A stretch of 60,029 nucleotides of DNA. Source: Candidatus Colwellbacteria bacterium (lineage in GTDB: Bacteria; Patescibacteriota; Minisyncoccia; UBA6257; Colwellbacteraceae). A program made the position numbers and the translations under genes. The notes beneath the pieces were generated by a model. It was given only the letters and a program-made list of their open reading frames with translations, searched no databases and was not told the origin of the DNA. Below, in pieces: positions 296-40,473 of the stretch (its first letter is position 1; the number at the start of each line of letters is the position of its first letter). Location of the stretch: assembly GCA_027448785.1 (NCBI GenBank), contig DAIDMW010000003.1, positions 1-60,029 on the forward strand. Reading direction: 5' to 3'.

Positions 296-386
296 GAAGC
301 GAAAGAAAGCCCAAAACTAAAAAACGAAAAAGCAATAACGTAGTTCTTTTGCGTTTTGCGTTTTGCGCTTTAAGCTTTTCGCTTTT
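296..386. repeat. Heptamer hairpin repeat, family A
   Basis: GGAAGCG...AATAACGTAGTTCTTTTG...TTTTGCGCTTT; reverse-complement homolog at 40151-40231. Confidence 0.85.
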
Positions 387-396
387 ATTTTTACGC

Positions 397-870
397 TTAA
401 GTATATCTGTCCGCCACGTTGCTGGCGGCGTAGCTTTCCGGCTTGGTCTTCACCTCGAAGTTGTTGGCGCGAACCAGTCCAACCAGTTCTTGCAGAACCG
501 TCTTGGTCTCGCCGTTATAACCGACGTCGACGTGGATTTCGAAATCGAATTTCGGGGCTTCCGCCTCCTTCAGGAACTCAAAAATCTGCTGAGCGATTTC
601 CAAAGAGATCATCGCTTCTTTGATCATCCGGTCGCGCAGGGTATGAAAGTTCTTCAACTCGGAACGCCGCCAAAAATAGCGCGCTCCGTTTCCGACCCGG
701 TGCACGACGACAGCTGTCACGAAGTCGGCGTCAGTCGAGTTGTACAACGCGGAATCAGTGCCGATCATTATCCGATAGGAACGGGCCTCGTTCTCGCGTA
801 TAAAGCCAATTATCTCGCGAACCACCTCGGTTGCATCTAGTTTTTTTCCTTCGTAATCCAAAAAGTCCAT
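397..870 (-). CDS. RNase H-like YkuK/DUF458 family protein
   Basis: IGTDS, EIHVDVG and KPESYAASNVADRY motifs. Confidence 0.85.
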   Translation of the reverse strand: MDFLDYEGKKLDATEVVREIIGFIRENEARSYRIMIGTDSALYNSTDADFVTAVVVHRVGNGARYFWRRSELKNFHTLRDRMIKEAMISLEIAQQIFEFLKEAEAPKFDFEIHVDVGYNGETKTVLQELVGLVRANNFEVKTKPESYAASNVADRYT

Positions 871-962
871 CGAAATTTACTTTAGGATAACCCGCAGCGC
901 TTAACGAAGCAAGCATAAAATTCTAAAAAATTTTTAGTAATCAAATATTAAGAATCTATAAT

Positions 963-1892
963 TTATGGTCTTAATTCCTCCATAACCCTTTCCGCCGCGG
1001 AATCGAACGCCTCCTTAGTGCGCGCCTCCAGATTCAGCCGCAGTAGATTCTCTGTGTTTGCCGGTCGAATATTAAGCCACCAATCGTCGAGCTCCAAAGA
1101 GAGCCCGTCTAATCTGAGCATTGACTTCGCCTCTCCGCGGAATCGACGCTCAACGCGGCGCATGATCTTTTTTTTATCTTCGACTTCGAAACTTGTTTCC
1201 GGAAGGCGATAATATTTTGGCAGAGAGTTTTTCCAAACCGAGAAGTCGTCTTCTAACTTTGAAACAGCTTCCAGGACCTTAGCCGCCGTCATTAATCCCG
1301 AATCGGCATAAAAGAAATCCCGAAAGTAATAATGGCCTGACAGTTCGCAGGCAAGCTCAATTCGCTCGCGGCGCATCGTTTTCTTTATAAAATAATGCCC
1401 GACGCGGCTTTCACTGATGTCGGTTTTAATTATCCCGTCACGCACAGCATCCTTAACTAGCCAACCTATACGCAAATCGATGAGCGCCTTTTTGGGAGCC
1501 ATGCGCTCAAGAAGGAGACGAGAAATAATATTGGCTCCGATTTCCTCCCCGTTGTCGTCGACGAAAACAGCGCGGTCGCCGTCGGCGTCGAAGGCCACAC
1601 CCAGGTCCGCGCGAACTCGACAAACCTCTTTTTTTAACCCATTCAACGCGCCTTCCTTCGTCGGATCCGGACCGTGCGCCGGGAAATCGCCATTGGGTCG
1701 CCCGTTAATGATCGAGAAGCTGATCTGCGGGTGACGATGTAAAGTTTTTTCCACCAATGGTCCGGTCGAGCCGTTGGAACAATCGAAAACGATTCTCATC
1801 GGACGTCTGGAGCGGAAGCGGTCACGGAAAAATTCCGAAGCTAATTCAACCCCGTCAATTTTTTTAATGGGAGAGCAATGAGACGACTTCAT
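963..1892 (-). CDS. Phosphomannomutase/phosphoglucomutase, C-terminal part (domains II-IV)
   Basis: FDADGDR metal loop, SRVGHYFIK, ELSGHYYF; out of frame with the upstream domain I ORF. Confidence 0.8.
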   Translation of the reverse strand: MKSSHCSPIKKIDGVELASEFFRDRFRSRRPMRIVFDCSNGSTGPLVEKTLHRHPQISFSIINGRPNGDFPAHGPDPTKEGALNGLKKEVCRVRADLGVAFDADGDRAVFVDDNGEEIGANIISRLLLERMAPKKALIDLRIGWLVKDAVRDGIIKTDISESRVGHYFIKKTMRRERIELACELSGHYYFRDFFYADSGLMTAAKVLEAVSKLEDDFSVWKNSLPKYYRLPETSFEVEDKKKIMRRVERRFRGEAKSMLRLDGLSLELDDWWLNIRPANTENLLRLNLEARTKEAFDSAAERVMEELRP

Positions 1893-2274
1893 AAATATCC
1901 TTCCCGCTAATAGGGACGGCTCGGGGTCCGACCATTTTCACCCCGTTGTAATTCTTAGGGTCGTGCGAAGCGGTTATTGTTAGGCCTCCGTCGGCTGGCA
2001 GCATATTAACCAGTAAATAAAGTGTCGGCGTAGTAATAAGCCCGGCGGCAAAAACTTCTTTCACCCTCGCGTCGGCGGCCGCCGTCCTTAAAACCTCGCG
2101 ATACAGAGACTGACTACTTTTTCTAGCATCGTGCCCAACGACAATTTTAATTTTCTTTTTTTTAAGTGAAAAACTTGTAATCAACGCTTGAGTGATAATT
2201 CTCACCGCCGGGCGATTTATCTCCAGCGGATACTTTCCACGAATATCATACGCTTTAAATATGTTTTGGTTCAC
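1864..2274 (-). CDS. Phosphomannomutase/phosphoglucomutase, N-terminal domain I
   Basis: IFKAYDIRG start, VGHDARKSS, ITASHDPKNYNGVK phosphoserine loop. Confidence 0.8.
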   Translation of the reverse strand: MNQNIFKAYDIRGKYPLEINRPAVRIITQALITSFSLKKKKIKIVVGHDARKSSQSLYREVLRTAAADARVKEVFAAGLITTPTLYLLVNMLPADGGLTITASHDPKNYNGVKMVGPRAVPISGKDIYEVVSLLSH

Positions 2275-2395
2275 GGAAACGCAAATGTATTGGTTTAATT
2301 GACGATTAGCAATGTATTGACGATATTTTAAATCTCACGCAAAAAAAAGAAAGTTGTTTCAGTCTCTTCTTAAAACTATAATGTGAGGGATAAAA

Positions 2396-4513
2396 ATGGC
2401 TAAGAAAAAAAACAGAAATCGCGGTAACGCAGGAAAATCCAGTAAGCCGACTCCGACAGCAAAGGAACCTTTTTTGCATCCGGAACTTAAATTAAGCATC
2501 TGGGCAATAGTTTCAATGGCTATCGCTCTGGTGTTATTGCTTTCAAGCGCCGGGCAGGCCGGGCCGGCCGGCAGCTTCCTTTTCAACCAATTTTCCTACC
2601 TCTTGGGTTTGGGATACTATCTGCTCCCGCTAATCCTCTTCATTGTCGGCATCGCTCTTGTAACCGACGGGCGGAAAAAGCTGGTAGCGGTTTCTTTCAT
2701 CGGCGCTTTTCTATTCTTACTGTCCGGCTTGGGGCTGTTCGGTATCATCTTCCCGGGCAGAGCCGGCGTTATAGGCGAGTTCCTCGCCGGCATCCAAAAC
2801 ATGTTCGGCTACTGGGCTTCGATTGCCATCAACCTGGCAGTTCTAATCATCGGCCTGCTTGTCTCCCTAAACACACCTCTCAGGCTCCGCGTTGGAAAGA
2901 AATTAGACGAGGATGACAGAAAAGAGGAAAAGAATAAAAAGGAAGTTTTACTCGAGATGCCGAAAATAATAATGCCCGGCGAAGCGGCTCCTTCGCCGTC
3001 AGCCGAGCCGCCGAAGAGAGAAGAGCTAAAAGTTACCGCGCCCGCTGAGGAGGCGAAAGAAAGCCTCGTTTCCTTGAAACAGAGATCCACTCCGCGCCGG
3101 TTGAAGAACTACGTCTTCCCTCCCCTCGCCCTGTTGAAGTCGTCGACCGACAAGCCGACCGTCGGCGACCTGCGAGCTAACGCCAACATCATTAAGCGCA
3201 CCCTGGAGAGCTTCGGCATTCCGGTAGAGATGGGCGAAATAACCATCGGGCCGAAAGTGACTCGGTACACGCTGAAGCCGGCGGAAGGAATCAAGCTGAC
3301 CAGGATCACCGCCTTAGGGCAGGATCTTAGCTTGGCGCTGGCCGCGCACCCAATCAGGATCGAGGCTCCAATCCCTGGAAAGTCGCTGGTCGGAATTGAA
3401 ATCCCCAACAAGATTCCGAGTATCGTCCGCCTCGGCAACCTCTTGTCCTATCGCGAATTCAGCGACTCCCCCGCCCTCTCCGTTCCTTTGGGGAGAGACG
3501 TGGCCGGCGAACCTATTTTTGCCAACTTAGCCAAGATGCCCCACTTGTTAATCGCCGGCGCGACCGGCAGTGGCAAGAGCGTAACCATCCATTCGCTTTT
3601 AATCTCCCTCCTTTATAAAAACTCCCCCGAGACGCTGCGCCTGATCTTGATAGACCCGAAAAAAGTTGAGCTTACGCCATACGAAGGGCTCCCACATCTA
3701 GTCGCCCCGGTTATCACTCAAGGCAAGAAAGCGGTCGCCGCCTTAAGGTTCGGCGTTGAAGAAATGGAGCGGAGGTACGACGTATTGCAGCAGGCCGGGA
3801 AAAGGGATATCGCCAGCTACAACGAAAAGCGCGAGGAGGATGTAATGCCTTACATGGTTATCGTCATCGATGAGCTGGCCGACCTGATGGCCGCTTTCGG
3901 ACGAGAAATCGAAGGCTATATCGTACGTCTGGCCCAGATGGCGCGCGCCACCGGAATACACCTGGTGGTCTCAACCCAGCGCCCCTCGGTCGAGGTTATC
4001 ACCGGCCTCATCAAAGCCAACATTACCGCGAGAATCGCCCTCCAGGTCGCCAGCCAAGTCGACTCTCGGACCATCCTCGATATGGCCGGAGCAGAGAAAC
4101 TCCTTGGAGGAGGCGACATGCTTTTCCTTTCGTCCGACTATTCCAAGCCGAAGAGAATCCAGTCCGCCTTCATCAGCGAAGAGGAGATAAACAAGGTGTC
4201 TCAGTTCATTAAGAAAGAAAATCCGGACGACGGCGGCGCCGCGCAGGAAGACCGGGTAGAAGCGGTGATGGCCAAAGCGGGAAGCGTCGAGGGCGGAGAC
4301 GGTGAGGACGACATGCTCGATGAGGCAATCGGTGTGGTCAAGGAGGCAAAAAAGGCTTCGGCCTCCCTATTGCAACGACGACTCCGTGTAGGCTATGCGC
4401 GAGCCGCCCGTCTTCTCGACTTAATGGAAGACCGCGGAATCATAGGTCCAGGAGAAGGAGCAAAACCCCGGGAAGTTTATATAACCGACGAAGATGGAGC
4501 AGAACAATTATAA
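2396..4513 (+). CDS. ftsK: DNA translocase FtsK/SpoIIIE
   Basis: N-terminal TM helices, GATGSGKS Walker A, IDELADLM, gamma domain LLQRRLRVGYARAARL. Confidence 0.97.
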   Translation: MAKKKNRNRGNAGKSSKPTPTAKEPFLHPELKLSIWAIVSMAIALVLLLSSAGQAGPAGSFLFNQFSYLLGLGYYLLPLILFIVGIALVTDGRKKLVAVSFIGAFLFLLSGLGLFGIIFPGRAGVIGEFLAGIQNMFGYWASIAINLAVLIIGLLVSLNTPLRLRVGKKLDEDDRKEEKNKKEVLLEMPKIIMPGEAAPSPSAEPPKREELKVTAPAEEAKESLVSLKQRSTPRRLKNYVFPPLALLKSSTDKPTVGDLRANANIIKRTLESFGIPVEMGEITIGPKVTRYTLKPAEGIKLTRITALGQDLSLALAAHPIRIEAPIPGKSLVGIEIPNKIPSIVRLGNLLSYREFSDSPALSVPLGRDVAGEPIFANLAKMPHLLIAGATGSGKSVTIHSLLISLLYKNSPETLRLILIDPKKVELTPYEGLPHLVAPVITQGKKAVAALRFGVEEMERRYDVLQQAGKRDIASYNEKREEDVMPYMVIVIDELADLMAAFGREIEGYIVRLAQMARATGIHLVVSTQRPSVEVITGLIKANITARIALQVASQVDSRTILDMAGAEKLLGGGDMLFLSSDYSKPKRIQSAFISEEEINKVSQFIKKENPDDGGAAQEDRVEAVMAKAGSVEGGDGEDDMLDEAIGVVKEAKKASASLLQRRLRVGYARAARLLDLMEDRGIIGPGEGAKPREVYITDEDGAEQL

Positions 4514-5183
4514 TTCGCTTTTTGCCACCTTGCGCTCCGTGCTGGAGCAAAGGGGAGTTAGCGCGGAAAAACTGGCGGCGCTGACCGATGTGCCGAAGAA
4601 GTTCATCCAGTCGGTGCAGAGCAACGAAATCGACAAGCTTCCGTCCCGCCCTTACGTGGTGGGCTATCTGAAGAAAATCGCCGCCGCGCTGGGAATAGAT
4701 GCGGACGAGCTAATCGCCGAATACGACGGTACATCCGGCCGGAAAAATAACAGCGACCGGTTGCCGGTAAACCGCTTTACTTACCAGCCGGGTCTCTGGC
4801 CGCTGCTTTTCGGCGGAATGGTATTCCTGGCTTTTTCCGCTTTCCTCGGCTATCGCTTCAACGATATCACCGGCTACCCGGCTTTTAAGGTGAACCTGCC
4901 GGCCAAGAGTTCTCTTCCGACCCTCGAGATCAACGGCCAACTACGCCCGCGCGACACCTTATCTATAAACGGACAGACGATAAACTCCGACGTCAACGGC
5001 GGGATCAATACGACCCTCTCGCTTAATCCCGGAGGCAATACGCTGATTTTCACCGTGCAGAGATTCCTAGGAAAGGAGGCGGCAGTAACTGAACAGGTCT
5101 TTTACCAGCCACTACTCAGCCAAACCACACCGGCATCCACCAGCACGCCAACCTCCACCACAGCCACATCGACCGGGCAGTAA
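4494..5183 (+). CDS. RodZ-like protein: N-terminal HTH, one TM helix, Ig-like C-terminal region
   Basis: LPSRPYVVGYLKKIAAALG HTH signature, TM about aa 100-120, located between ftsK and recA. Confidence 0.7.
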   Translation: MEQNNYNSLFATLRSVLEQRGVSAEKLAALTDVPKKFIQSVQSNEIDKLPSRPYVVGYLKKIAAALGIDADELIAEYDGTSGRKNNSDRLPVNRFTYQPGLWPLLFGGMVFLAFSAFLGYRFNDITGYPAFKVNLPAKSSLPTLEINGQLRPRDTLSINGQTINSDVNGGINTTLSLNPGGNTLIFTVQRFLGKEAAVTEQVFYQPLLSQTTPASTSTPTSTTATSTGQ

Positions 5184-5308
5184 GCGCAAAGAAAAAAGCG
5201 CAAAACTAAAAGCTAAAAGCGAAAAAATAGCGACAAGTGGTTAGTGGCTAGTCGCCGGTTTTTTGCATTTTGCGCTTTTAGTTTTGCACTTATTTGGTTT
5301 TGCTTTTG
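5184..5308. repeat. Heptamer hairpin repeat, family A
   Basis: AAAGCGCAAAACTAAAAGCTAAAAGCG...TTTTGCGCTTTTAGTTTTGC. Confidence 0.85.
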
Positions 5309-5334
5309 AATAGGCGAAATAATATAATTCCTTT

Positions 5335-6363
5335 ATGCCTAATAAAAAGAAAGCGTTTGTCCCGGCTGGCGGCGACGATTTACAGACACTGCTCCAATCC
5401 CTACGAGAAAAGTTCGGCGAAGAGTCGGTTATGACCCTGGGTGAGGCCAGGAAAGTCGATGTCGACGCCATCCCTTCCGGCTCGTTTTCTCTGGACATCG
5501 CTCTCGGCGTCGGCGGGTTTCCGCGCGGGAGAATCGTCGAGATCTTCGGCCCGGAATCGAGCGGCAAAACAACTTTGGCTTTGAACGTCGTGGCCCAGGC
5601 CCAGAAAAAAGGCGGTCGGGCGGCTTTTATCGACGCCGAGCACGCCCTGGACCCCGTTTACGCCCAGAAGATCGGCGTAAAGCTGGATGAGCTTATAATC
5701 TCGCAGCCAGACAGCGGCGAGGAGGCGCTAAATATCCTGGAAAGTCTGGTGCGCTCGGGAATGATTAGCGTCGTTGTGGTGGACTCGGTAGCGGCTCTAA
5801 CTCCCAAAGCCGAAATCGAGGGCGAGATGGGAGCGCAATTTATCGGACTACAAGCTAGAATGATGTCGCAAGCGCTAAGGAAGCTCACGGCGGTCTCCGC
5901 CAAGAGCGGGACGCTGATTATTTTTATTAACCAGCTGCGCGAAAAAGTTGGCGTCTTTTTTGGTAACCCCGAAACCACACCGGGCGGACGGGCGCTAAAA
6001 TTTTACTCCTCGGTGCGCATAGATATCCGCCGAACGGCGCAGATTAAAAAAGGAGAAGATGTCGTCGGCAATCGCGTTAAAGCCAAGGTGGTTAAAAACA
6101 AGGTAGCTCCTCCGTTCAAAGTGGCTGAATTCGACATTATGTACGGCGAGGGCATCTCGTACGATAACGACGTAATCAACACTGCTTTGCGACTCGGCGT
6201 CATTTCCAAAGCCGGAGCCAGTTATTCGTTCGACGGGGAAAAACTCGGTGTTGGGATGGAAAAGATACGCGAGCGCTTTAAGGAGAATAAGAAAATGTTC
6301 GAAGAGATTAAGAAAAAGACCTTGGCCGCTTCGCAAGAAAACCCATTGGTGGAGGGAGAGTAG
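5335..6363 (+). CDS. recA: Recombinase RecA
   Basis: [31 protein letters not shown]. Confidence 0.99.
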
Positions 6364-6373
6364 AGCTCCCGAT

Positions 6374-6487
6374 AAAGCGCAAAACTCAAAGCTAAAAGCG
6401 AAAAGTGAAAAATACCGACCGGCCGTTAGTCGCTGGTTCTTTTGCATTTTGCGCTTTAAGCTTTGCGTTTATTTCTTTGCGCTTTTT
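6374..6487. repeat. Heptamer hairpin repeat, family A
   Basis: Shares AAAAATACCGACCGGCCGTTAGTCGC with the copy at about 28055-28080. Confidence 0.85.
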
Positions 6488-7386: not shown

Positions 7387-7387
7387 A

Positions 7388-9411: not shown

Positions 9412-9516
9412 TATGGATAGAAGTATAACATAACGGCGCTGCGGCGGTTAAAGCGCAAAATGAAAAATTTAAAACAATCTTGTTTAAATGCGTCAGCGGT
9501 GGGATCGCGTGTCAAA

Positions 9517-9861: not shown

Positions 9862-9868
9862 CTCTTGC

Positions 9869-10312: not shown

Positions 10313-10437
10313 AAAATATTTTTTATTATTTTAATGTCCTTGTTTTTAATATTAGCACTAATCTGATCGAAAAATTAGTGGATAAAAGAAAAGCGGAGTA
10401 AGTCATATAGACTCACTCCGCCAAGAGCAGTATAGCC

Positions 10438-13695: not shown

Positions 13696-13835
13696 CATCT
13701 ACAATACCTCGCCGCTTGCGACGAGGTTATGCAAAAATAGCAGGTGGAAACATCCTGAGTCACGTCGAAGGATGGAAACATCCTGAGTCACGTCGAAGGA
13801 TGGAAACATCCTGAGCTGCGTCGAAGGATAGCTGT
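13696..13835. repeat. Right copy of the inverted repeat, with a 28-bp unit triplicated (starts 13747, 13775, 13803)
   Basis: GAAACATCCTGAGTCACGTCGAAGGATG twice plus one variant copy. Confidence 0.9.
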
Positions 13836-24635: not shown

Positions 24636-24881
24636 AAAATACAAAAACGAAAAGCACAAAGTAACGCAAATCCGAAACACGAAATCCTAAATCCCAAACA
24701 AATTCCAATTTACAAATCATAAATGCGAAACACATTTGTGTTTGGAGTTTGTAGTTTGGTATTTCGAATTTGTTTCGGATTTCGATATTAGGATTTAGGG
24801 AGCGCAAAACTAAAAGCGCAAAAGAACTAACGACTGGAGACTTGCCGTTGTTTTTCGCTTTTAGCTTTTAGTTTTGCGTTT
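24636..24881. repeat. Composite heptamer hairpin repeat (family B then family A)
   Basis: AAATCCGAAACAC...TTTCGGATTT arms, then GGAGCGCAAAACTAAAAGCG hairpin. Confidence 0.85.
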
Positions 24882-26981
24882 TTAGCTGCTTAGCTGTTTG
24901 ATCGACAAGCCCACCTTGCCGTTCTCTAGCTTGATGACTTTGGCGCGGACGTGGTCGCCCACCTTCAGCACGTCGGTCACTTTCTCCACATATCCATTTT
25001 TCAGCTCGGAAACGTGGATCATTCCGCTTTTTCCGCCGCCCAGATTGACGATGGCGCCGAAGTCGAGGATTTTCTCCACCTCGCCCTCGACGATCTCCCC
25101 GATCTCGAATTCGCGCAGCAAGTTTTTAATCTCGTTAGCCGCGGCATCGGCGGTAGCTCGGTCGGGAGCGGAAATAAAAACTTTCCCGTCGTCGTCTATG
25201 TCGATCGACGTGGCTCCGGTTTTCTCAATAATGCCGTTAATCACCTTACCGCCGGCGCCGATCACCTCGCCGATGCGCGATGGATCGATGGTGAAGGAGA
25301 CGATTTGCGGCACTCCCGGTTTTAGTTCTGAGCGCGGAGCCGAGATGGCGCCTTTCATAACCTGCAATATTTTCAGCCTGGCCTCGCGGGCCTGAGACAT
25401 CGCCTGGCGCAAGACGTCCACTCCGACGCCGTCTATTTTTACATCCATCTGCAAAGCGTTGATTCCGTCCTCGGTTCCAGCCGCTTTAAAATCCATATCG
25501 CCGTAGTGGTCCTCCGGGCCTTGAATGTCGGTCAAGACGCGGTACCTGCCGTCGTGGGCGCTCATTAAGCCCATAGCAATACCCGCCGCCGGCTTCTTCA
25601 AGGGAACGCCGGCCTCCATCAACGACATTACCGAAGCGCAGACCGTAGCCATCGAACTCGATCCGTTAGAGGAAAGTATCTCGGAAACAACGCGGATAAC
25701 GTAAGGAAACTCTTCTCTCGAGGGAATAAGCGGCGCGACAGCTTTTTCCGCCAGAGCACCGTGCCCGATCTCCCGGCGACCAGGACCCTTGAATCCGCCG
25801 ATTTCTCCCGTGGAGAAGGGCGGAAAGTTGTAATGCAGAAAGAAACGGTCCTTTTTGGCGCCGTCCAGCGTTTCAGAAAGGCGCTCTGCTCCGGGAGCGG
25901 CCAGAGTAGTAACGGCTAAGGCTTGGGTGTTGCCGCGAACGAAAAGCGCGGAGCCGTGCACTATCGGCAGGACGCCGGCTTCGGCGTATAGATCGCGCAG
26001 CTCGTCGAAAGCACGGCCGTCGGGGCGGACGCCCTCGTCGAGCAGTTTACGGTGGACCAGCGCGTCAACCTCGTCGTCGAACATAAGGGAGGCCAGCTCG
26101 ATTTCCTTTTCGAGGAACTGTTCTTCGGACAAAGCGCGCAGCAGATCGGCGCGCAGCTCCTCCATCTTTAACCCGCGCTCTTGTTTTTCTTTAATATAAA
26201 CGGCGGCCTCTAATTTGCCTTTTAAGAATTCTGAAACTGACGATTGGAGCTTTTCGCTCGGCATAGGTACCGGGACATCCGTCTTCGGACGGCCTAACGC
26301 CTTCACCGCTTCATTTTGGAAATCGATCAGCTGGGCGATCGGCTGGAGCGCGGTCTCGAAAGCTTTGGCGACATCCTCCTCTTTAGCATCGAGGCCGCCG
26401 AGTTCGATCATGTTGATTTTTCCTCCCAATCCGGCGATGAAAGTGGAAAACTCGACATCGTCCGCAGCCAGCTCCGAGTTGGTCGGATTAACGACAAAGC
26501 CGCTGCGGTTCTTTAGCAAACGAACGCCGGAAATCGGGCCGTTCCACGGGATGTCGGACATAGCCAGAGCGGTTGAAGCGGCGACCAGCCCAACGAAATC
26601 TGGGTCGTTCTGCCCGTCGTAAGAAAGGACGGTTACCACGACTTGGATCTCGCGGCGGATCCGCTGATCGAAAAGCGGACGAATGGCGCGGTCGATGAGT
26701 CGACCGGAAAGTATCGCTTCGTCCGACGGCTTGCTTTCGCGGCGCAGAAAGCGGCTGCCTAGAATGTGGCCTCCGGCGTAAAACTTCTCTTCGTAATTGA
26801 CAGTCAAAGGAAGGTAATCGACGTCGCGGTCGGTCTTAGCCATTACCGCCGTCGCCAAGACGGTCGTCTCGCCGTAGCTCGCAAGGACGGCGGCGTTCGC
26901 CTGCTCCGCTAATTTTGATACCTCTAACTTCAAAGTCCGGCCGCCGATCTCCAGACTAAACTGCTTTCTTTGTAAATCCAT
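24882..26981 (-). CDS. pnp: Polyribonucleotide nucleotidyltransferase
   Basis: RREIGHGALAE, SNGSSSMA, GDMDFK, KH and S1 domains; start MDLQRK. Confidence 0.98.
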   Translation of the reverse strand: MDLQRKQFSLEIGGRTLKLEVSKLAEQANAAVLASYGETTVLATAVMAKTDRDVDYLPLTVNYEEKFYAGGHILGSRFLRRESKPSDEAILSGRLIDRAIRPLFDQRIRREIQVVVTVLSYDGQNDPDFVGLVAASTALAMSDIPWNGPISGVRLLKNRSGFVVNPTNSELAADDVEFSTFIAGLGGKINMIELGGLDAKEEDVAKAFETALQPIAQLIDFQNEAVKALGRPKTDVPVPMPSEKLQSSVSEFLKGKLEAAVYIKEKQERGLKMEELRADLLRALSEEQFLEKEIELASLMFDDEVDALVHRKLLDEGVRPDGRAFDELRDLYAEAGVLPIVHGSALFVRGNTQALAVTTLAAPGAERLSETLDGAKKDRFFLHYNFPPFSTGEIGGFKGPGRREIGHGALAEKAVAPLIPSREEFPYVIRVVSEILSSNGSSSMATVCASVMSLMEAGVPLKKPAAGIAMGLMSAHDGRYRVLTDIQGPEDHYGDMDFKAAGTEDGINALQMDVKIDGVGVDVLRQAMSQAREARLKILQVMKGAISAPRSELKPGVPQIVSFTIDPSRIGEVIGAGGKVINGIIEKTGATSIDIDDDGKVFISAPDRATADAAANEIKNLLREFEIGEIVEGEVEKILDFGAIVNLGGGKSGMIHVSELKNGYVEKVTDVLKVGDHVRAKVIKLENGKVGLSIKQLSS

Positions 26982-27861: not shown

Positions 27862-27887
27862 AAACTGGCTTAAATAAAGGAGATTTG

Positions 27888-28116
27888 AAGCGCAAAGCGA
27901 AAAGCGCAAAATGCAAAAGAATGAAAATTCGAAATCTGAAACAAGGGAAAATTCGAAATTCTAAATCCGAAATCCTAAACAAATCACAAACTACAAATTC
28001 CAAATACGAAACACGAACGGGTTTAGGAAGCGTAAAACGCAAAGCTAAAAGCTAAAAAATACCGACCGGCCGTTAGTCGCCGTCTCTTTTGCGCTTTGCG
28101 CTTTTAATTTTGCGCT
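27888..28116. repeat. Composite heptamer repeat (A-B-A)
   Basis: AAATTCG/AAATCCG/AAATCCT run flanked by AAAGCGC units; ends TTTTGCGCTCCTAG. Confidence 0.85.
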
Positions 28117-28139
28117 CCTAGTGTCGTATAATGTAGGCA

Positions 28140-29033: not shown

Positions 29034-29046
29034 TTTAGACGAGGAC

Positions 29047-30329: not shown

Positions 30330-30340
30330 GGAGGGATACC

Positions 30341-31246: not shown

Positions 31247-31371
31247 CCGAACTGCACCTCAAACCCCGCGGACAAGCGATTGTCAGCGGGGTTTTTTCTT
31301 CTTTTAGAAAACATCCCGTAATTGCGGCTATGTTTAAGCAGCCAACTTGGGGGACGTCCGCCGTATCTTTA

Positions 31372-31917: not shown

Positions 31918-31935
31918 TTTTTTATTTTAGCATTT

Positions 31936-32235
31936 TCATCCGCCAAGAGCGCTTTTGATTAGATTTACTATCGCTAGCGCTCCAAACACGATAACGACCC
32001 CTACCACTGCCGCGGTAATGATATTCCTACCCTGAGATATTTTTTTTGCGTCACCGCCCGACGTTAAAAGAATAAACCCGCCATAAATAATCATCACCGC
32101 CGCCAAAGGTATGGCGATAGTCAACATGAAGTTCAAAATATTTGATATCAAAGTATTAAAGTCTCCCCATCCGCAGTGGAAAGGATCGTTGACGCAACTC
32201 TGTGGAACGATTTGAGCCAGCAGGCTTTTATTCAT
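31936..32235 (-). CDS. Pilin-like protein
   Basis: LLTSGGDAKKISQGRNIITAAVVG motif; Cys pair CVNDPFHC. Confidence 0.8.
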   Translation of the reverse strand: MNKSLLAQIVPQSCVNDPFHCGWGDFNTLISNILNFMLTIAIPLAAVMIIYGGFILLTSGGDAKKISQGRNIITAAVVGVVIVFGALAIVNLIKSALGG

Positions 32236-32239
32236 TAAT

Positions 32240-33523: not shown

Positions 33524-33610
33524 ATGGGTAATATTAGAACAAAATTCGCGAAGCGTTAAATTAAATACGGTGGCGTTTGCACTTTATCACCATCTTTATT
33601 CCTGTCGGCA

Positions 33611-33710
33611 TTTTGCCTTTTGCGCTTTTTAATCCCAAATTCGAAACACGTTTATATTTAGGGTTTGATATTTCGTATTTCGAATTTGGGATTTTCTATT
33701 ATTTTACGCT
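33611..33710. repeat. Heptamer hairpin repeat, mostly family B
   Basis: AATCCCAAATTCGAAA pairs with TTTCGAATTTGGGATT. Confidence 0.75.
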
Positions 33711-36146
33711 TTATAAGAGCGCTGTTCCCGCGATACTATCCCCCTCTTCCACGCGCATAATGCGCACGCCTTGGGCGGAGCGCCCGGTCATGCGTATGCT
33801 CTTTAAATCGGTACGGATAATCTGCCCCTTTTCCGAGATGGCCAGAAGCTCTTTCTCGTCCACCACGACGTGGGAAGAAACTACCGCTCCGGTCTTGGGA
33901 GTAACTTTTGCTGTGAGTATTCCTTTGCCGCCGCGGGTCTGCAGGCGATACTCCGAGATCGGAGTAAACTTGGCGAATCCGTTAGCCATTACCACCAGGA
34001 AGTTGCCGTCCTTGTTTTCCGAGGTGATGACGTCGCAGGAGCTGACGCGGTCTCCCGCTTTTAAGCTCATGCCGCGCACGCCGGCGGCGGCACGCCCCAT
34101 CGGCCTGACGTCTTTCTCTTTAAAGCGAATCGCTTGCCCTTGGTTGGTAGTCAGAATCAACTCGTCTCCCGTCTTGGTCAACTTAACCCAGCTTAATTCG
34201 TCGCCTTTCTTCAAATTAATGGCAATGATTCCGCTTTTACGGACGTTGCTAAAATCTTCTAAAGGGGTCTTCTTCACGACGCCGGCGGCCGTGACCATAG
34301 TCAGAAATCCGTCGTTTTTTTTGCGCTCGTTTCCGTAAGCGATAATGGCGCTGACTTTCTCGCTGGAGGGTATCTCCAGGAAGTTGTGGATTGCCTTCCC
34401 CTTGCTGGTGCGGCTCGAGACCGGCACCTCGTAAACCTTGGTTTGGAAGACCTTCCCGCCCGAAGCGAAGAAAAGGATATTGTCGTGAGTGTTGGCCATA
34501 AGGAAGTGCGCCAGCTCGTCGCTCTCGTCGAATGATCCGCCAGTAATCCCTTTTCCACCCCTCTTCTGCGCCTTAAAGGTGTTCGGCGGCAGGCGCTTGA
34601 TGTAACCATCGCGCGACATCGTGATAATCGTCTCCTCCTGTGGCACCAGGTCCTCGACGGTGAACTCCTTCAGTCCGCCTTCTATTACCTTGGTTCTGCG
34701 CTCATCGCCGAACTTTTCCCGTATCTCTTTCATCTCGTCCTCGATCACCCCGTCGATTTTTTCCGGGCTGCGCAGCAAAAGCTCCAGCTCCTTAATGAGC
34801 TTCAACTTCTCTTTAAGCTCATCCTCGATCTTCTGCCTTTCCAAGGCCGCCAAAGTCTGCAGCCGCATCTCGAGGATGGCGGTAGCCTGCAGATCGCTCA
34901 AGTCGAACTTCTTCACCAAGTTGTTGTGCGCATCCTCCTTGTCCTCCGATTTCTTGATCGTCTCGATGATCTTGTCGATGACCGAGAGCGCCTTGGCTAG
35001 ACCCTCCAAAATGTGGGCGCGGGCCTTGGCCTGCTTTAAATCAAATTCGGCGCGACGGCGCACCACCACGCGGCGATGGGAGATAAAAACTTCAAGCGCG
35101 TCCTTCACCGACATAATCTGCGGGCGCAATCCGTCGATCAGCGCCAAAAAATTCATATGGAAATCCTTCTGCAAATCGGTATAGTTCCAAAGCTGGTTTA
35201 AAACTTTCTGCGGAATAGCGTCGCTTTTCAAGTCGATGGCGATCCTCAGACCATCCTTATCTGATTCGTCGCGCAAATCCTTAATACCCTCGAGCCGCTT
35301 GTCCTGCACCAGCTCGGCGATTTTGGTAATCAACTCCGCCTTGTTAACCTGATAGGGAATTTCGGTGATGACAATCTTCTTCTCGTCCACCTCGGCCAAA
35401 GCGCGAACCGTTATCGCGCCGCGCCCGGTGGCGTAAGCCTCGTTGATCTTGGCATGATCATAAATTACCCCGCCGGTCGGAAAGTCCGGCCCTTTGATGA
35501 ACTTCATCAACTCCTCGGAAGTAGCATCGGGATGCTTAATAAGGTAGGCCGCCGCTTCCAAAACCTCGCCGAGGTTGTGCGGCGGAATGCGGGTAGCCAT
35601 TCCGACTGCAATGCCGTCCGAGCCGTTGATCAGCAGATTAGGGATCTTGGCCGGCAGCACCACTGGCTCGTCGCGCGTCCCGTCGTAGTTCGGCATGAAG
35701 TCGACGGTCTCTTTTTCAATATCGGTCAGAAGCTCTTCGGCGATCTTTGAGAGCCGGCACTCGGTGTAGCGCATCGCGGCCTGCGAATCGCCGTCGATAG
35801 AACCCCAGTTGCCCTGGCCGTTGATGAGCGGGTACCTCAAGCTAAAGTCCTGCGCCATGCGCGCCAAAGAGTCGTAAACCGCCATGTCGCCGTGTGGGTG
35901 GTACCTGCCTAAGACCGAACCGACGACGTTCGCCGATTTGCGGAATTTGGCGCTGTGCGTCAGACCGTCATCCCACATCGCCCACATTATGCGGCGGTGT
36001 ACCGGTTTCATCCCGTCCCTAGCGTCGGGCAGGGCGCGGCCGACGATGACCGACATTGCATAATCCAAATAAGACTCGCGCAGCTCGGCGGTGATCTCCC
36101 TTTCCTTTATATTCTCGCCCTTGGCGTTGAGTTTTTCCTCGTCCAT
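33711..36146 (-). CDS. gyrA: DNA gyrase subunit A
   Basis: YHPHGD, AAMRYTE, GyrA-box QKRGGKG. Confidence 0.98.
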
Positions 36147-36163
36147 AATACTTTAATTAGTGA

Positions 36164-36721
36164 TTAAGCGGCCTGCATGATGAGAAGCCTCAAAGCGCTC
36201 TCGCTTAAGTCTTTGCGCTTGGCCGTGAACTTCTCAACCATTTCCGGGGTTTTCCCGAGCGCCGCGGCTAGCGCCTTGCTGTCCTTGCAGGCGGTGAAGA
36301 TTGCGACTTTTGGCTCCATCTCCTTGATAAGCGCCGCTGCTTTCTTTTCATCTAAGCCGTGCTCGCCGGTTGATAGGAATAAGACGTCGATCTCGCCCAG
36401 CCGATCCATCGTCTCACTGGAAAGCGCGGAAGAAAGCTCGCCCAAGAAACACAGCGACATCTCGTCCAGTTTAGCCACGTAAACCGTGCGGATTTCCTTC
36501 TCCGAGGACTCCTCTTTTATTTGGACCCCACGGATGCGCACACCGCTGATCTCGTATTCGCCGGCAGTGTTAATAGTTTCGTCCGCCGTGAGCGGAAGAG
36601 GCAGGACTACGTGCGTATATAAGGTAATATCGCCGCGGGCCGAGATCGGTGGATCAATGAGAAGCGCGAAATCGGAAACCTGGCATTTTAACCCGCCATT
36701 TTTCAAAGGGGTGACAACCAT
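36164..36721 (-). CDS. MBL-fold protein (Lactamase_B_3-like), metal motif apparently degenerate
   Basis: LLIDP, GEYEISGV, GEIDVLF; no HxHxDH visible. Confidence 0.65.
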   Translation of the reverse strand: MVVTPLKNGGLKCQVSDFALLIDPPISARGDITLYTHVVLPLPLTADETINTAGEYEISGVRIRGVQIKEESSEKEIRTVYVAKLDEMSLCFLGELSSALSSETMDRLGEIDVLFLSTGEHGLDEKKAAALIKEMEPKVAIFTACKDSKALAAALGKTPEMVEKFTAKRKDLSESALRLLIMQAA

Positions 36722-36782
36722 ACCTATTTAGTATAATTCGGAAACAGTTGATTTTCAACCGCGTTTATATATAATGAGGGCC

Positions 36783-37883
36783 ATGCAACAAACGGTTTCC
36801 CCCAAAAAATCCGAGACTTACGAGCTTAAGCTATTGAAGTCCGAGCCCGGCCTGATGCCGCTTTTAAAGGTTGGCGATATTGTCGAGGCGAGGCTCATCG
36901 AGAAATCCGGACGCGGCGGAGTTTATTTCGACATCCCACGGGTAGGCCTGGGAGTCATCTATGGCTCCGAGCTTTCCAACTCTAGGGAAATCGTCAAAAA
37001 ATTGAATGTGGGGGATACTGTCAGCGCAAAAGTTGCCGTGCGCGAGAACGCCGAAGGAATGGTCGAGCTGTCTCTGTCCGAAGCCACCAAGCAGAAGGCT
37101 TGGCAGGAGATCAAAGACCTGCGCGAGGAAGGCAAACCTACCAAGGTTAAGATTGTGGCCGCCAACAGCGGCGGATTGATCGCCGACCTTCTGGGTGTTC
37201 AGGCCTTTCTGCCTGCTTCACAGCTTTCTCCGGAACACTACCCTCAGGAGGTCGAGGGGAATAAGACTAAGATCCTCGAGGCCTTGAAACAGTTCGTCGG
37301 CCAGGAACTGACGGTCAAAGTCATCAATTTTACGCCGCGAACCAACAAGCTTATCATCTCGGAAAGAGAAGTTTTGTCAGAGGGAGCTAAAGAGGCGCTC
37401 GCCAAGTATAAGCCGGGCGACGTCGTAAACTGCATCGTTTCTGGCGTGGCTAACTTCGGGGCCTTCGTCAGGTTTGCCGACGACCCGAGCATCGAGGGAT
37501 TGATTTACATTAGCGAATTGAGTCACAGCATCATCGACAATCCGAAAGAGGTGGTGAAAGTCGGCGACATGGTCAAAGCAAGCATCCTGGAGATAAAGGA
37601 TGGACGCGTTTCCCTGTCAATCAAAAGCCTGGAAGAGAATCCTTGGGAAAAAGTTGGAGAAAAGTTCAAGGAGGGCGGTATCGTCCCTGGAACCGTCTAT
37701 CGCATCACTCCCTTCGGAGCTTTCGTCAAGCTGGACCAACAAATCTCCGGGTTGATCCACGTCTCCGAGTTCGGCAGCCTCGAAGAGCTGAAGAAGAACC
37801 TGGAACTCAATCAGAGCTACCAATTCTTCATCGCCTCGGTCAAGCCGGACGTCAAGCGAATCATCTTGAAGCTGGCGAAGTAG
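36783..37883 (+). CDS. rpsA: S1-domain protein (short ribosomal protein S1)
   Basis: Four S1 repeats (NSGGL, AFLPASQL, FGAFV, GLIHVSE); start set at MQQTV. Confidence 0.8.
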   Translation: MQQTVSPKKSETYELKLLKSEPGLMPLLKVGDIVEARLIEKSGRGGVYFDIPRVGLGVIYGSELSNSREIVKKLNVGDTVSAKVAVRENAEGMVELSLSEATKQKAWQEIKDLREEGKPTKVKIVAANSGGLIADLLGVQAFLPASQLSPEHYPQEVEGNKTKILEALKQFVGQELTVKVINFTPRTNKLIISEREVLSEGAKEALAKYKPGDVVNCIVSGVANFGAFVRFADDPSIEGLIYISELSHSIIDNPKEVVKVGDMVKASILEIKDGRVSLSIKSLEENPWEKVGEKFKEGGIVPGTVYRITPFGAFVKLDQQISGLIHVSEFGSLEELKKNLELNQSYQFFIASVKPDVKRIILKLAK

Positions 37884-37890
37884 TACGAAT

Positions 37891-37965
37891 AAGCGCAAAG
37901 GGTAAAAGAAATACGTTGTTATTTTACCCTTTGCGTTTTTATTTTTTTGCTTGCTTCTGCGCTTT
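37891..37965. repeat. Heptamer hairpin repeat, family A (short)
   Basis: AAGCGCAAAGGGTAAAA pairs with TTTTACCCTTTGCGTTT. Confidence 0.75.
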
Positions 37966-38016
37966 ATTGCAATCTACGAGCCGAAACATTATGTTAAATA
38001 CGAATAAGTAATATAT

Positions 38017-39849
38017 ATGAAGGGATTAACAAAAAACATCTTAATAACGCTTCTCTTGATTTTGAGCTTCGCGCTGGCGGCCTCGTTTATCTACCAGGCG
38101 CAAACTCAACCGAAAAACATCAGCCTTTCTGATCTAGCGAGCCAGATCACGAACGGCCAGATCAAGAAGATCGACATAAGCGGCAACAGTCTCACCGTTA
38201 CCGGGACTAACGGGCAGATTTATCAGGGAGAAAAAGAGGCGGAGTCGGGATTAGTGGAAACGATGAAAAACTACGGCGTGACTCCGGAAGAATTAGCCAA
38301 GGTGAACCTTACCGTCTCTCCCTCCAGCTCCTCCAGCTTCTGGCTGACCGTTGTCCTGCCTAATCTGCTTTTTATCCTCCTTATCGGTTTCGCTTTTTAT
38401 TATTTCATGCGCCAGGCCCGGCAGGGAGTGAACCAGGCCTTTAACTTCGGCCGCGCCAACTTGCGCCTCTTCGCTAGTTTTAAAGATAAGATAACCTTCG
38501 CCGACGTAGCCGGCCTTAAAGAGGTCAAGGAGGAGATGCACGAGGTCGTCGATTTTTTGAAGAGTCCGAAAAAATATTTGGATATGGGCGCGAAAATCCC
38601 GCGCGGCGTTCTTTTGATCGGTCCTCCCGGTTCTGGAAAAACCCTTCTGGCTCGCGCGGTTGCCGGAGAAGCGAACGTCCCGTTCTTCCACATTTCCGCC
38701 TCGGAATTCGTGGAGATGTTCGTCGGAGTTGGCGCAGCGAGAACGCGCGACGCTTTCGCCACCGCGAAACGCTCGGCGCCGTCGATACTGTTTATCGACG
38801 AAATTGACGCCGTCGGACGCGAGCGAGGAGCCGGCGTCGGCGGAGGGCACGACGAGAGAGAGCAGACCTTAAACCAGATACTAGTGGAGATGGACGGCTT
38901 CGACCGCAATACGCAGGTTATTGTTTTGGCCGCCACCAACCGTCCCGACATTCTTGACCCAGCCTTACTTCGTCCTGGAAGATTCGACCGCCGCATCATG
39001 CTCGATTTTCCCGACATCAGCGAGCGTGAATCGATACTGAAGCTGCATGCCAAGGACAAGCCGCTGGATTCCGGCGTCGATTTTCGCAAGGTGGCCACCC
39101 GCACGCCCGGATTTTCCGGAGCCGACTTAGCCAACTTAGTAAACGAAGCGGCGATTCTCGCCGTGCAGGAGGGGCAGCAAAAAATAAGCCAGCAGAACCT
39201 CTACGACTCGATCGAAAAAATATTACTAGGGCCAGCGCGCAAGAGTCGCGTTGTCTCGGAAAAAGAGCGGGAGATTACAGCCTATCACGAGGCGGGGCAC
39301 GCGCTGGTCGCAGCCGGACTGAGAGACTCCGATCCGGTGCATAAGGTTTCCATCGTCTCGCGCGGCATCGCCGGCGGATATACATTAAAGCTGCCGACCG
39401 AGGAACATCATCTCACAACTCGCGCGCAGTTCTTGTCCGATCTGGCCGTCATGCTTGGCGGATATTCGGCTGAAGAAAAAACTTTCGGCGACATCACCAC
39501 CGGAGCTAGTAGCGACTTAAAAGAAGCTTCGAGCTTGGCGCGGATGATCGTAACCAGGTTCGGCATGAGCGAACTTGGGCCGATCACTTTCGGCAAGACT
39601 GAAGAACTGCTCTTTTTAGGCAAGGAGATCACCACCGAGAAGAACTACTCGGAAGCCACCGCAGTCAAAATAGACGAAGAGGTAGCCAGCTTAATAAACC
39701 GCGCTCACCAAACCGCAAAGAAGGTAATCTCCTCCTACCAGGATGTTTTAAAGAAAGTGGCTGACGCTTTAATGGAGAAAGAGACTCTGGAAGGCGAGGA
39801 GTTCTACGAGTTGATCAAGGAGTTTAACATCAAGCCGATAGAGGCCTAG
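38017..39849 (+). CDS. ftsH: ATP-dependent zinc metalloprotease FtsH
   Basis: Two TMs, [23 protein letters not shown]. Confidence 0.98.
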
Positions 39850-39850
39850 G

Positions 39851-39930
39851 AAAGCGCAAAGCGAAAAGCTAAAAGAGAAAAACAGCGACTAGGTAAGCAC
39901 AAAGATAAAAGCGCAAAGTTCAAAATAAAA
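39851..39930. repeat. Heptamer repeat, family A, left arms only
   Basis: CTAGGAAAGCGCAAAGCGAAAAGCTAAAAG... Confidence 0.75.
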
Positions 39931-40075
39931 TACGGGCTGGCCAGAACAATGGCCGGCCTTGATTTTATTTTTATCCGCGATACCTACCGCTCGTGCGGCA
40001 ACAGGAGATGAGAATATTTCGGGGCGGTTTTGCACTTTTCCAGTTTTCTCCTAATATATTGGAAGCCGGCTTCCC

Positions 40076-40148
40076 GCGCCCATAGCTCAGTGGTTAGAGC
40101 ATGCGACTTATAATCGCAGGGTCCTTGGTTCAAATCCAAGTGGGCGCA
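40076..40148 (+). tRNA. tRNA-Ile(UAU)
   Basis: TGCGA-CTTATAA-TCGCA anticodon arm, intact cloverleaf, A73. Confidence 0.9.
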
Positions 40149-40150
40149 CT

Positions 40151-40473
40151 AAAGAAACGCAAATCTTAAAGCGCAAAGCACAAAAGAACTACGTTATTGT
40201 TTTTCGCTTTTAGTTTTTCGCTTTGCGCTTCCTGGTCCCGTCCGTGTTTGTAATTTAGGATTTATAGTTTGTGATTTGTTTAGGGTTTAGTATTTAAGAT
40301 TTCGGATTTCCAATATCGGCTAGTCCCTAACCTCTATTCCCTAGTAAGTGTTTTTCGCTTTTAGTTTTTCGCTTTGCGCTTTAATCTTTGCGCTTTCACA
40401 TTTGTTTCGGATTTCGATATTAGGATTTGGAATTTCAGTTATTTTAAATTTTGCGCTTTAAGTTTTGCGCTTC
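40151..40473. repeat. Long composite heptamer repeat between tRNA-Ile and tRNA-Val
   Basis: Contains a 29-nt exact match (40400-40428) to 24768-24796. Confidence 0.85.

Follow-up and report, generated by a model that had tools for sequence, protein, structure and literature searches.

What are the long hairpins, periodic every seven nucleotides, that occupy the spacers between genes of a Candidatus Colwellbacteria bacterium, and where do they come from? We examined positions 1 to 60,029 of contig DAIDMW010000003.1 (60,029 nucleotides (nt); hereafter, the window), in which these hairpins, named Family A, were found between 294 and 40472. Family A was a true dispersed sequence family and not mere low complexity, and arms of the same kind enclosed a PF05635 gene in other bacteria. 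On balance we favour an account in which the hairpins are gene-less, fast-turnover relatives of the heptamer palindrome cassettes known from ribosomal RNA (rRNA) genes as intervening sequences (IVS).

Family A as a dispersed sequence family

Family A copies were about 95–125 nt long and had a constant layout: an A-rich array of 7-nt units (AAAGCGC, AAAACTA, AAAGCTA, AAAGCGA), a GC-rich mini-hairpin whose core, CGTTAGTCG, is asymmetric, and finally an array of T-rich mirror units. Because of this asymmetry, an orientation could be assigned to each copy. The order of the arms was strict, with the A arm followed by the T arm in 42 cases and the reverse order in 3. Tandem Repeats Finder reported a period of 7 or 14 on the arms, and a degenerate 22-nt arm pattern gave 15 matches with at most one mismatch, compared with 0.00 in shuffled sequences; all 15 fell inside the spacers listed as element-bearing.

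The non-repetitive part of the element was also conserved. Twelve hairpins from the window and from two species represented by metagenome-assembled genomes (MAGs), SKS1.bin112 and SKS5.bin41, aligned colinearly, core included, and gave a consensus of about 95 nt (AAGCGCAAAACTAAAAGCTAAAAGCGAAAAACAACGAC.GGTCGTTAGTCG.CGGTTCTTTTGC.CTTTGCGCTTTTAGCTTTGCGCTT). In this alignment 82.9% of the stem cells were paired, against 32–49% when the partner columns were slid. A covariance model built from the alignment recovered the four seeds of the window and two non-seed copies (E8 and E1, described below), with a weak match to E6, and many further non-seed copies in SKS1.bin112 (70–86 bits), whose examined loci share no orthologous genes with those of the window species. 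The shared central cores described in the initial annotation were confirmed: AATAACGTAGTTC of E1 was present as its reverse complement in E8, and the 21-nt loop TACCGACCGGCCGTTAGTCGC was identical between E3 and E5b. Assembler word depth in one DNA sequencing run was 48–124 over the elements and 9–13 over neighbouring genes. A search of Rfam 15 with gathering and E-value thresholds returned only tRNAs and no family matching the elements, whose best matches were chance-level plant-miRNA hairpins (E 0.5–0.75; 25–26 bits against gathering thresholds of 100–102).

Family A copies in the window

The inventory comprised six full-length hairpins, one short variant and several arm-only arrays, distributed over nine intergenic spacers. 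Facing arms had been claimed for at least eight spacers; arms were present at all eight listed sites, and those at 39851 had no facing partner nearby. The earlier list was amended in other points as well: the site at 37891 turned out to be a short variant, further arrays were found at 33600–33715, 40346–40400 and 40441–40472, and a second hairpin family, Family B, shared most of the spacers.

E1 (294..387, plus strand) was a full hairpin with the loop core AATAACGTAGTTC and the left end CTAGGAAGCG, with RNase_H_2 on one side (minus strand, start at 252) and, on the other, the stop codon of an RNaseH_like gene (397); the covariance model matched it at 300–380 (41 bits, E 1e-7). E2 (5184..5305, plus), also full-length, extended from the stop codon of an HTH_25 gene to just before the promoter-like region of recA (model match 5193–5294, 84 bits; fold z −4.5), and its tip (GCGAC...GTCGC, then a T run) was terminator-like. 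E3 (6374..6485, plus) was a full hairpin between the convergent genes recA and lytR, reaching the lytR stop codon (6379–6473, 94.5 bits; fold z −4.3), with a tip that was terminator-like on both strands. The full hairpin E4 (24797..24887, minus) carried a minus-oriented core directly 3' of the stop codon of pnp, the gene for PNPase (24800–24884, minus, 71 bits; fold z −3.9). The divergent spacer between rpsO and an xer-like recombinase gene contained both E5a (27888..27920, plus), an A-rich arm array without partner arm that was followed by a Family B left arm, and E5b (28022..28124, plus), a full hairpin that had the inverted ends TAGGAAGCG...GCGCTCCTA and shared its 21-nt core with E3 (28025–28120, 85.6 bits; fold z −3.2).

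The short variant, E6 (37888..37941, plus), consisted of the hairpin GCGCAAAGGGTAAAA / TTTTACCCTTTGCG and a long T run, 3' of an S1-domain gene and ahead of ftsH (27 bits, fold z −3.8); judged from its sequence, it reads like a plain intrinsic terminator. E7 (39848..39931, plus) comprised only A-rich arm arrays that started with CTAGGAAAGCGC directly after the ftsH stop codon, and an ordinary GC-rich terminator-like hairpin (39922–39971) was found 3' of them. E8 (40150..40235, minus) was a full hairpin of the E1 type in the opposite orientation, with the right end GCGCTTCCTGG, and began one base past tRNA-Ile(UAU) (40152–40233, minus, 65.6 bits, E 1e-13); a variant allele of E8 was present in sequencing run X1. 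T-rich arm arrays were also found at 40346–40400 and 40441–40472 (within 40346..40472, minus) with a Family B piece in between, and 40349–40381 was identical to the 33-nt right arm of E8. Finally, T-rich arm pieces at 33600–33630 and 33695–33715 (within 33600..33715, strand unassigned) flanked a Family B hairpin.

No Family A copy was found past 40.5 kb in the 60-kb window. Elements were present in about one quarter of the spacers up to 41 kb, and in none of those over the remaining 19 kb, shares that come from a greedy map of open reading frames (ORFs) that mis-called some spacers, with the element-bearing spacers classified by hand. Eight of the nine lay past the 3' end of a gene or tRNA. 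The elements began 0–11 nt beyond stop codons and the adjacent proteins retained their C-termini, in agreement with the earlier description of elements that abut stop codons without disrupting genes. The window contained no rRNA genes, and every Family A copy in it was located between protein or tRNA genes.

The tRNA-Ile gene with the rare anticodon UAU (40076–40149) was embedded in the largest mosaic of the two families, with A-rich arm arrays 150–225 nt upstream and T-rich arrays 50–320 nt downstream. The 33-nt arm at 39851 was complementary at 30 of 33 positions to 40350–40382, as if the tRNA lay in the loop of an outer inverted repeat; since the arms are generic, this pairing may mean nothing.

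Gene-bearing cassettes with the same arms

Over 106 genome contigs contained the arm pattern; their sources included many Patescibacteria, Omnitrophota, Atribacterota, Bacteroidota and other groups. Matches in Campylobacter were set aside as spurious, as they came from one conserved non-hairpin sequence, most likely coding, in every contig. A link to phages was also rejected: none of five IMG/VR matches had a hairpin or arm-array context.

Clustering of the small ORFs in the arm-pattern loci gave one recurrent family, PF05635 (23S_rRNA_IVP, a four-helix-bundle protein; E 1e-24 to 1e-38). Five PF05635 genes were found in these loci, each in the loop of a heptamer-periodic inverted repeat: one with A-type arms in an Omnitrophota MAG, with a housekeeping gene on either side (L082), one with GGTGGGA/AGTGTGA arms near the 5' end of a Saccharibacteria 16S rRNA gene (L069:4560-5460), one with GATGAGT arms between tRNAs (L104), one with CGTATCT arms (L091) and one with B-like arms (L108). 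The L069 cassette is an IVS of the same architecture in 16S instead of 23S rRNA. The order in L104, from a Patescibacterium, was tRNA-Met, gene cassette, tRNA-Met, a gene-less twin with the same AATAG...CTATT ends, and tRNA-Asp. This placement matches that of E8, which begins one base past tRNA-Ile.

The initial annotation stated that similar heptamer arrays flank four-helix-bundle genes in other bacteria; a scan of metagenomes confirmed this link and put numbers to it. The scan used a two-sequence alignment of L082 and L108, the five-sequence PF05635 alignment being too diverse, and its result is therefore valid for one PF05635 subfamily. Eighty loci were found. In 53 of 77 metagenomic PF05635 loci the flanks were complementary far above shuffled controls (z below −3). 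Most loci showed a lag-7 excess, and the arms, AAAGCGTAAAGCTTAAAGCGCAAAG...(ORF)...TAAACTTTAAGTTTTAGTTTTACGC, used the units of Family A. By a strict pattern, 24 of 71 distinct loci had A-type arrays on either side of the gene, and none of 148 control windows did.

Polymorphism among strains and species

Contigs of the same species were gathered through exact-protein look-ups. Four independent assemblies (L002, L005, L008 and L010) had genes 99.4–99.5% identical to those of the window, and two of their spacers were wholly different, with other combinations of Family A and Family B hairpins: the RNase H spacer (193 nt, against 144 nt in the window) and the recA–lytR spacer (267 nt against 123 nt). 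E1 was replaced by a different mosaic in L002, L005 and L008, and E3 was replaced in L002, L005 and L010. The proteins flanking the replaced spacers retained their C-termini, and synonymous differences were concentrated in the last few codons, a clustering at gene ends which suggests that a diverged spacer allele was brought in through homologous recombination. E2, E4, E6 and the mosaic at 39.8–40.5 kb were stable among strains apart from point changes; E2 was kept in 10 strain contigs and E4 in strains L127–L131. Two single-nucleotide polymorphisms fell in stems and changed G-C to G-U and U-A to U-G (the latter being the A>G difference in E6), too few to weigh.

More distant relatives were compared through graded RecA homologues with conserved gene order (L133, 97%; L135, 88%; L137, 87%). 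Three orthologous spacers of L135 were short (69, 102 and 83 nt) and element-free, and the covariance model found no Family A copy over the orthologous 15-kb loci of L135 and L137. L137 had B-type arms in spacer S1 and a different hairpin in spacer S3. L133 retained the outer A arms of E3, with a Family B hairpin of about 155 nt right after GTTAG in the loop. A clean pair of filled and empty Family A sites was not seen among the near-identical strains. In these comparisons elements are gained, lost and nested, preferentially beside hairpin tips.

The RNase_H_2 gene was inverted in L133 (L133:1094-1939 against window 1–396 and L002:3973-5063). Both borders of the inverted segment bore A or B hairpins, 1872–1939 being a flipped copy of the E1/E8 type, which suggests that the inversion occurred between inverted element copies.

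Family B and nested palindromes

Family B is a second family of heptamer or octamer hairpins, built from AAATCCG, AAATCCT and AAATTCC units (AAATCCGAAATCCTAAACAAATTCCAAA... facing its complement) and found in most Family A spacers, interleaved with the A elements. One Family B hairpin (24640..24796, strand unassigned) abutted E4, and further Family B sequence was found at 27920–28018, 33631–33693, 40238–40345 and 40400–40440. In the window and in SKS1.bin112, the Family A hairpin followed the loop of a B element through the junction ACGGGTTTAGGAAGCG; the junction as present in E5b was common to L017 and L078 of another species, at unrelated loci, with 82–85% identity over 154–171 nt.

The B hairpin of L133 itself contained the small GC palindrome TCCGCCAGCCGGCGGA. 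This 16–17-nt palindrome (TCCGCCAGCCGGCGGA / TCCGCCAGCTGGCGGA) was nested within B arms in relatives (L133:8029-8301, L133:6750-7001, L133:1094-1306 and L137:3104-3239); with its flanking A and T runs it resembles a compact bidirectional terminator, and it forms a third nesting family. Family A loops of SKS1.bin112 (L022, L028, L099 and L111) held long inverted telomere-like heptamer arrays (CTAGGGA / TTAGGGG ... CCCTAAT / CCCCAGC). Other unit types in the same architecture were CAACCGT (L101), GATACTA (L110), TAGCGTA (L095 and L097) and CACCAAT (L091).

Ends, target sites and mobility

Ends resembling (C)TAGGA(A)GCG were found at 293, 24796, 28024, 28116 (reverse complement), 39847 and 40226 (reverse complement). 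The pair AGGAAGCG(C)...(G)CGCTTCCT terminated E1, E4 (as a variant), E5b, E7 and E8, and occurred also in L017, L061 and L078. The initial annotation had proposed a defined end. This end, TAGGAAGCG, was indeed present at six element borders belonging to five copies or arrays, and recurred in another species; it was missing from E2, E3 and E6. The 9-mer like TAGGAAGCG, with one mismatch allowed, was not enriched in the window (10 found against 18.7 expected), so the defined end rests on its position at borders and its recurrence in another species.

The longest word shared by the two flanks of 22 full copies had a mean length of 3.73 nt, against 3.77 nt in random pairs, and none reached 6 nt; target-site duplication was thus not detected. 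No transposase, REP-associated tyrosine transposase (RAYT; REP, repetitive extragenic palindrome) or reverse transcriptase was found among the genes of the 60-kb window, where the only recombinase was Xer-like. Orthologous sites were polymorphic for insertions, with L135 element-free, L133 bearing a B insert in the loop of its E3 orthologue, and different mosaics in the L002 group. Of the earlier proposal of a non-autonomous mobile element, the dispersed family, the spacer differences between close strains and the element-free spacers of the related species L135 stood. The picture of a classical miniature inverted-repeat transposable element (MITE) was not supported, given the lack of target-site duplication and of a transposase in the 60 kb, and the inconsistent ends. 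Assignment to the REP/RAYT class was not supported either, because the units are about 95–125 nt with heptamer arrays instead of 20–40 nt and no Y1-transposase-like gene was found in the window.

Folding and possible roles in RNA

Folding was compared with 200 shuffles for eight stretches. Six of them had z between −3.2 and −4.5, values matched by 0–1 of the 200 shuffles, while E1 and E8 were marginal (z about −2). One of the six was 39848–39980, whose fold was carried by the ordinary terminator-like hairpin, and the A arms were unpaired there. Transcripts of either strand would form an imperfect stem of 30–50 bp, in which an A-rich 5' arm pairs with a U-rich 3' arm below a GC-rich tip. A simple terminator pattern was matched by the tip of E2, by that of E3 on both strands, by that of E5b on the minus strand and by the hairpin at 39934; the pattern was no commoner in the region than in shuffles.

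A sister subfamily with the loop ACGAATTCGT was found in L037 and L090 (Saccharibacteria / Patescibacteria POMEDNA-B22), where it filled nearly every gap between ribosomal-protein genes. These hairpins spanned from the stop codon to the next ATG and left no space for a Shine-Dalgarno sequence or a promoter. Their arrangement fits processing better than termination, and hints at processing into short-leader mRNAs.

The build of the Family A hairpins suits the terminator or RNA-stability role suggested in the initial annotation: it is like that of bidirectional terminators and resembles the RNase III substrates of IVS stems and of phage T7 intercistronic sites. By analogy, 3'-end formation or protection would be expected, together with RNase III processing. 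Family A hairpins probably function at 3' ends or in processing, or the cell at least tolerates them in such a role; any specific role in RNA is a tentative suggestion that we hold to be possible and somewhat doubtful.

Relation to known elements

The rRNA IVS (S23p / PF05635; Leptospira, Coxiella, Xanthomonas and CPR, the candidate phyla radiation) resemble Family A in their long inverted-repeat stem around a loop and in their heptameric stem units. In Coxiella, tandem heptameric repeats (GACAGAT), whose number varies among strains, precede the S23p ORF, and the stem is cut by RNase III (PMC4990558). The rRNA genes of CPR bacteria contain 23S_rRNA_IVP ORFs and many short ORF-less inserts (PMC11270868), a further likeness to Family A, and the arms of Family A type around PF05635 genes in Omnitrophota and many metagenomic contigs are another. 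PF05635 is a homologue of the retroelement accessory protein Avd (PMC10053308). The window copies differ from IVS in that they lie between protein genes or beside tRNAs and not in rRNA, are many per genome and nest, and have as their loop a GC-rich mini-hairpin of about 25 nt with no ORF. RNase III excision has been shown only for the rRNA elements.

Elements such as REP/BIME, ERIC, RUP and Correia are likewise multi-copy intergenic imperfect palindromes at gene 3' ends, with mosaic clusters and strain variation, and the roles of REP include mRNA 3'-end stabilisation and termination. Family A differs from them in its much longer, A·T-rich stems of 7-nt units, and in its link to a four-helix-bundle gene instead of a RAYT or transposase partner, none of which was seen; Correia elements make a TA duplication, whereas Family A has no target duplication. 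T7 early RNA contains long imperfect intercistronic hairpins, and these sites and bidirectional intrinsic terminators share with Family A the succession of A tract, GC-rich hairpin and T tract, which can be read from both strands, and a location between genes that are convergent or in tandem. In Family A, by contrast, the tracts are 30–45 nt long, interrupted by GC every 7 nt and mutually pairing, and the copies form a homologous repeat family.

Heptanucleotide repeats are abundant and unexplained (PMC4679880). Cyanobacterial short tandemly repeated repetitive (STRR) sequences and the heptamer hairpins of Geobacter and Beggiatoaceae are tandem 7-nt intergenic units, often in inverted arrays, which are phylogenetically scattered and have no established mechanism (PMC4679880). 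The Geobacter hairpins were listed as putative regulator sites, among them 'class 3' sites that consist of five heptanucleotides in tandem and loop back (PMC2700814). All of these have other unit sequences and hosts and were reported as simple repeats or regulator sites, and no conserved core, nesting or PF05635-cassette link was described for them. Our literature searches turned up no account of dispersed heptamer hairpins that lack a gene in CPR spacers, nor of a tie between such hairpins and PF05635 cassettes. The parts are known, namely IVS stems, extragenic palindromes and heptamer repeats; new, as far as we found, is the combination of gene-less copies abundant in the spacers and tRNA gaps of CPR bacteria, nesting of elements in one another, allele replacement between strains and the measurable tie to PF05635 cassettes.

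Origin of the hairpins and alternative explanations

In the account that we favour, Family A would be the gene-less form of the widespread heptamer-periodic palindromic cassettes that are called IVS when they lie inside rRNA genes, and its copies would derive from PF05635 cassettes by gene loss, as MITEs derive from transposons. The gene-less copies, Family B and the small GC palindrome would settle just past stop codons and beside tRNAs, by a route of spread that may favour hairpin tips and the first bases after stop codons. They would nest into one another near loops and turn over quickly, and the diverged spacer alleles could then be exchanged between lineages through homologous recombination.

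Several results weigh against this account. Stem covariation, to which the initial annotation had looked, was absent: with a hand-given structure all measures on the alignment stayed within those of shuffles, and RNAalifold found no consensus structure on the sequence alignment. Cognate arms paired no better than arms taken across copies (−24.4 against −25.5 kcal/mol), and shuffling the stem partners among copies left the pairing values unchanged. The pairing is thus held by the family consensus and says nothing for or against selection on structure. Fold energies were much the same for sense and antisense strands, whichever way the flanking genes ran. Family A cannot be the general terminator of the genome, because only about a quarter of the spacers contain it up to 41 kb and the final 19 kb lack it altogether, and efficient termination is disfavoured in L037 and L090 because of the missing promoter room. 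Three metatranscriptomes of the same mine-drainage study contained no contig of the organism over 36.7–41.3 kb. The PF05635 gene was absent from the window, as the initial annotation had stated, and from the examined loci of this lineage (hmmsearch of six-frame segments, which detected only the five genes outside this lineage), so that derivation from a gene-bearing cassette is conjectural for this genome. Finally, the arm vocabulary is simple, and the likeness to cassette stems could partly be convergence.

The hairpins might instead be home-grown bidirectional intrinsic terminators, neither mobile nor related to IVS, that arose in place through 7-nt slippage and hairpin-templated repair and whose likeness was selected. 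The polarity of A arm, GC-rich tip and T arm is what two-way termination needs, the tips match the terminator pattern and lie at gene 3' ends, and the arms are interchangeable among copies, as expected if only the generic unit matters. Among the longer simple repeats of bacteria, heptanucleotide repeats are moreover reported as the commonest class, for which polymerase slippage may be the cause (cited in PMC4679880), and the number of heptamer units differs among Coxiella strains (PMC4990558). However, slippage in place does not sit well with non-repetitive loop cores that are identical or nearly so between distant copies and between species, with the recurrence of the junction ACGGGTTTAGGAAGCG at unrelated loci of another species, with a B element seen as a discrete insert of about 155 nt, or with the same arms enclosing a gene in dozens of unrelated contigs; the presence of the element in only about one quarter of the spacers and a terminator pattern not above shuffles also speak against it, and we regard it as improbable. 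Neutral drift of AT-rich spacers into heptamer arrays, with a family look created by low complexity and frequent gene conversion, would agree with the absence of covariation, with the common partnerless arm arrays (27888, 39851 and 40346) and with the replacement of whole spacers between strains by recombination. It is quite improbable given the conserved asymmetric GC-rich core, the excess of paired over slid stem cells and the strict polarity; L135 spacers lacked such arrays, no Family A copy was present in L135 or L137, and none was found in the last 19 kb of the window although the spacers are AT-rich there.

Classical MITEs, or REP-like palindromes moved by a transposase or RAYT encoded elsewhere in the genome, would account for small, gene-less, multi-copy intergenic units, for inverted ends (AGGAAGCGC...GCGCTTCCT) in several copies and in another species, and for presence and absence at orthologous sites. 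Nesting near hairpin loops is likewise reminiscent of IS1397, which inserts in E. coli REP units near the hairpin loops. The missing target-site duplication, the lack of any transposase, RAYT or reverse transcriptase in the window, the variable ends (E2 and E3 without the TAGGAAGCG end, the 9-mer not enriched) and a unit of about 95 nt with heptamer arrays, unlike REP units of 20–40 nt, leave this explanation little probability. Least probable of all, and in our view very unlikely, is the reading of the elements as binding-site arrays of a protein that recognises 7-nt units, either on DNA (in the nucleoid or in recombination) or on single-stranded RNA (e.g. a cold-shock-domain protein melting the hairpin), with the hairpin as a secondary feature. 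The strict 7-nt register and the conservation of the unit vocabulary across phyla would suit such a protein, and B. subtilis CspB reportedly binds one heptamer per molecule and prefers T-rich units (reviewed in PMC4679880). We found no candidate for such a protein, however, the two arms are always mirror images, and many different units (CTAGGGA, GATGAGT, CGTATCT, GGTGGGA) share one architecture, which argues against a single sequence-specific reader.

The derivation of Family A from IVS-type cassettes can be extended to a broader proposal, which we consider rather unlikely. Heptamer palindromes and the PF05635 (Avd-like) gene would then be one cross-phylum class of elements that spreads without a recognisable transposase, with the rRNA IVS merely its best-known landing site and the gene-less hairpins of CPR spacers as MITE-like descendants. 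Copying or insertion of the element, e.g. at hairpin tips and possibly with the pentameric protein on the stem, would have left its footprint in the 7-nt register.

Host and other features of the window

The host is a tiny uncultured Patescibacterium (CPR) of the Parcubacteria type: its RecA was 97–98% identical to proteins labelled 'Patescibacteria group bacterium' and about 80% identical to those of Candidatus Tyrphobacter, Harrisonbacteria and Colwellbacteria. The sequencing runs that contained the stretch were mine-drainage, sediment and groundwater metagenomes. The genes dnaA and dnaN were adjacent (55264–57940), with spacers at 56374–56581 and 57941–58115 and an intervening spacer GC of 0.23; this is probably the replication origin region, and it belongs to the last third of the window, which had no Family A or B element. 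Window positions 1–52 matched, reversed, a stretch about 1.6 kb farther upstream in strain contigs L002 and L004, and the left edge is either a rearrangement breakpoint or an assembly join.

Two tandem arrays were also found. At 13745–13829, inside a 384-nt stretch preceding a tRNA cluster, three near-exact copies of the 28-nt unit TGGAAACATCCTGAGTCACGTCGAAGGA (94% matches) were unrelated to Families A and B. At 41544–41761, between a 176-aa gene and a UPF0102/NERD gene, about 4.6 copies of a 48-nt unit bore the perfect palindrome TGTTTCACGTGAAACA and were preceded by arrays of AATCCGGAAA(C/T)-like units (41260–41440). Strain contig L117 was shorter by 144 nt (3 units) at the 48-nt array, whose copy number is therefore strain-variable.

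Significance

We know of no function or mode of spread established for the PF05635 / S23p protein and the rRNA intervening sequences since about 1990. The window ties this puzzle to that of the heptanucleotide repeats: the same stem architecture occurs with a gene, in rRNA and in the gaps between tRNAs or protein genes, and without a gene, as an abundant and fast-changing repeat in a streamlined CPR genome. The pair of cassette and gene-less twin in L104, the spacer alleles of the strains and the nesting sites beside a conserved loop motif provide testable handles. The hairpins also break metagenome assemblies, and they probably affect where transcripts end in a group of organisms about whose gene regulation next to nothing is known.

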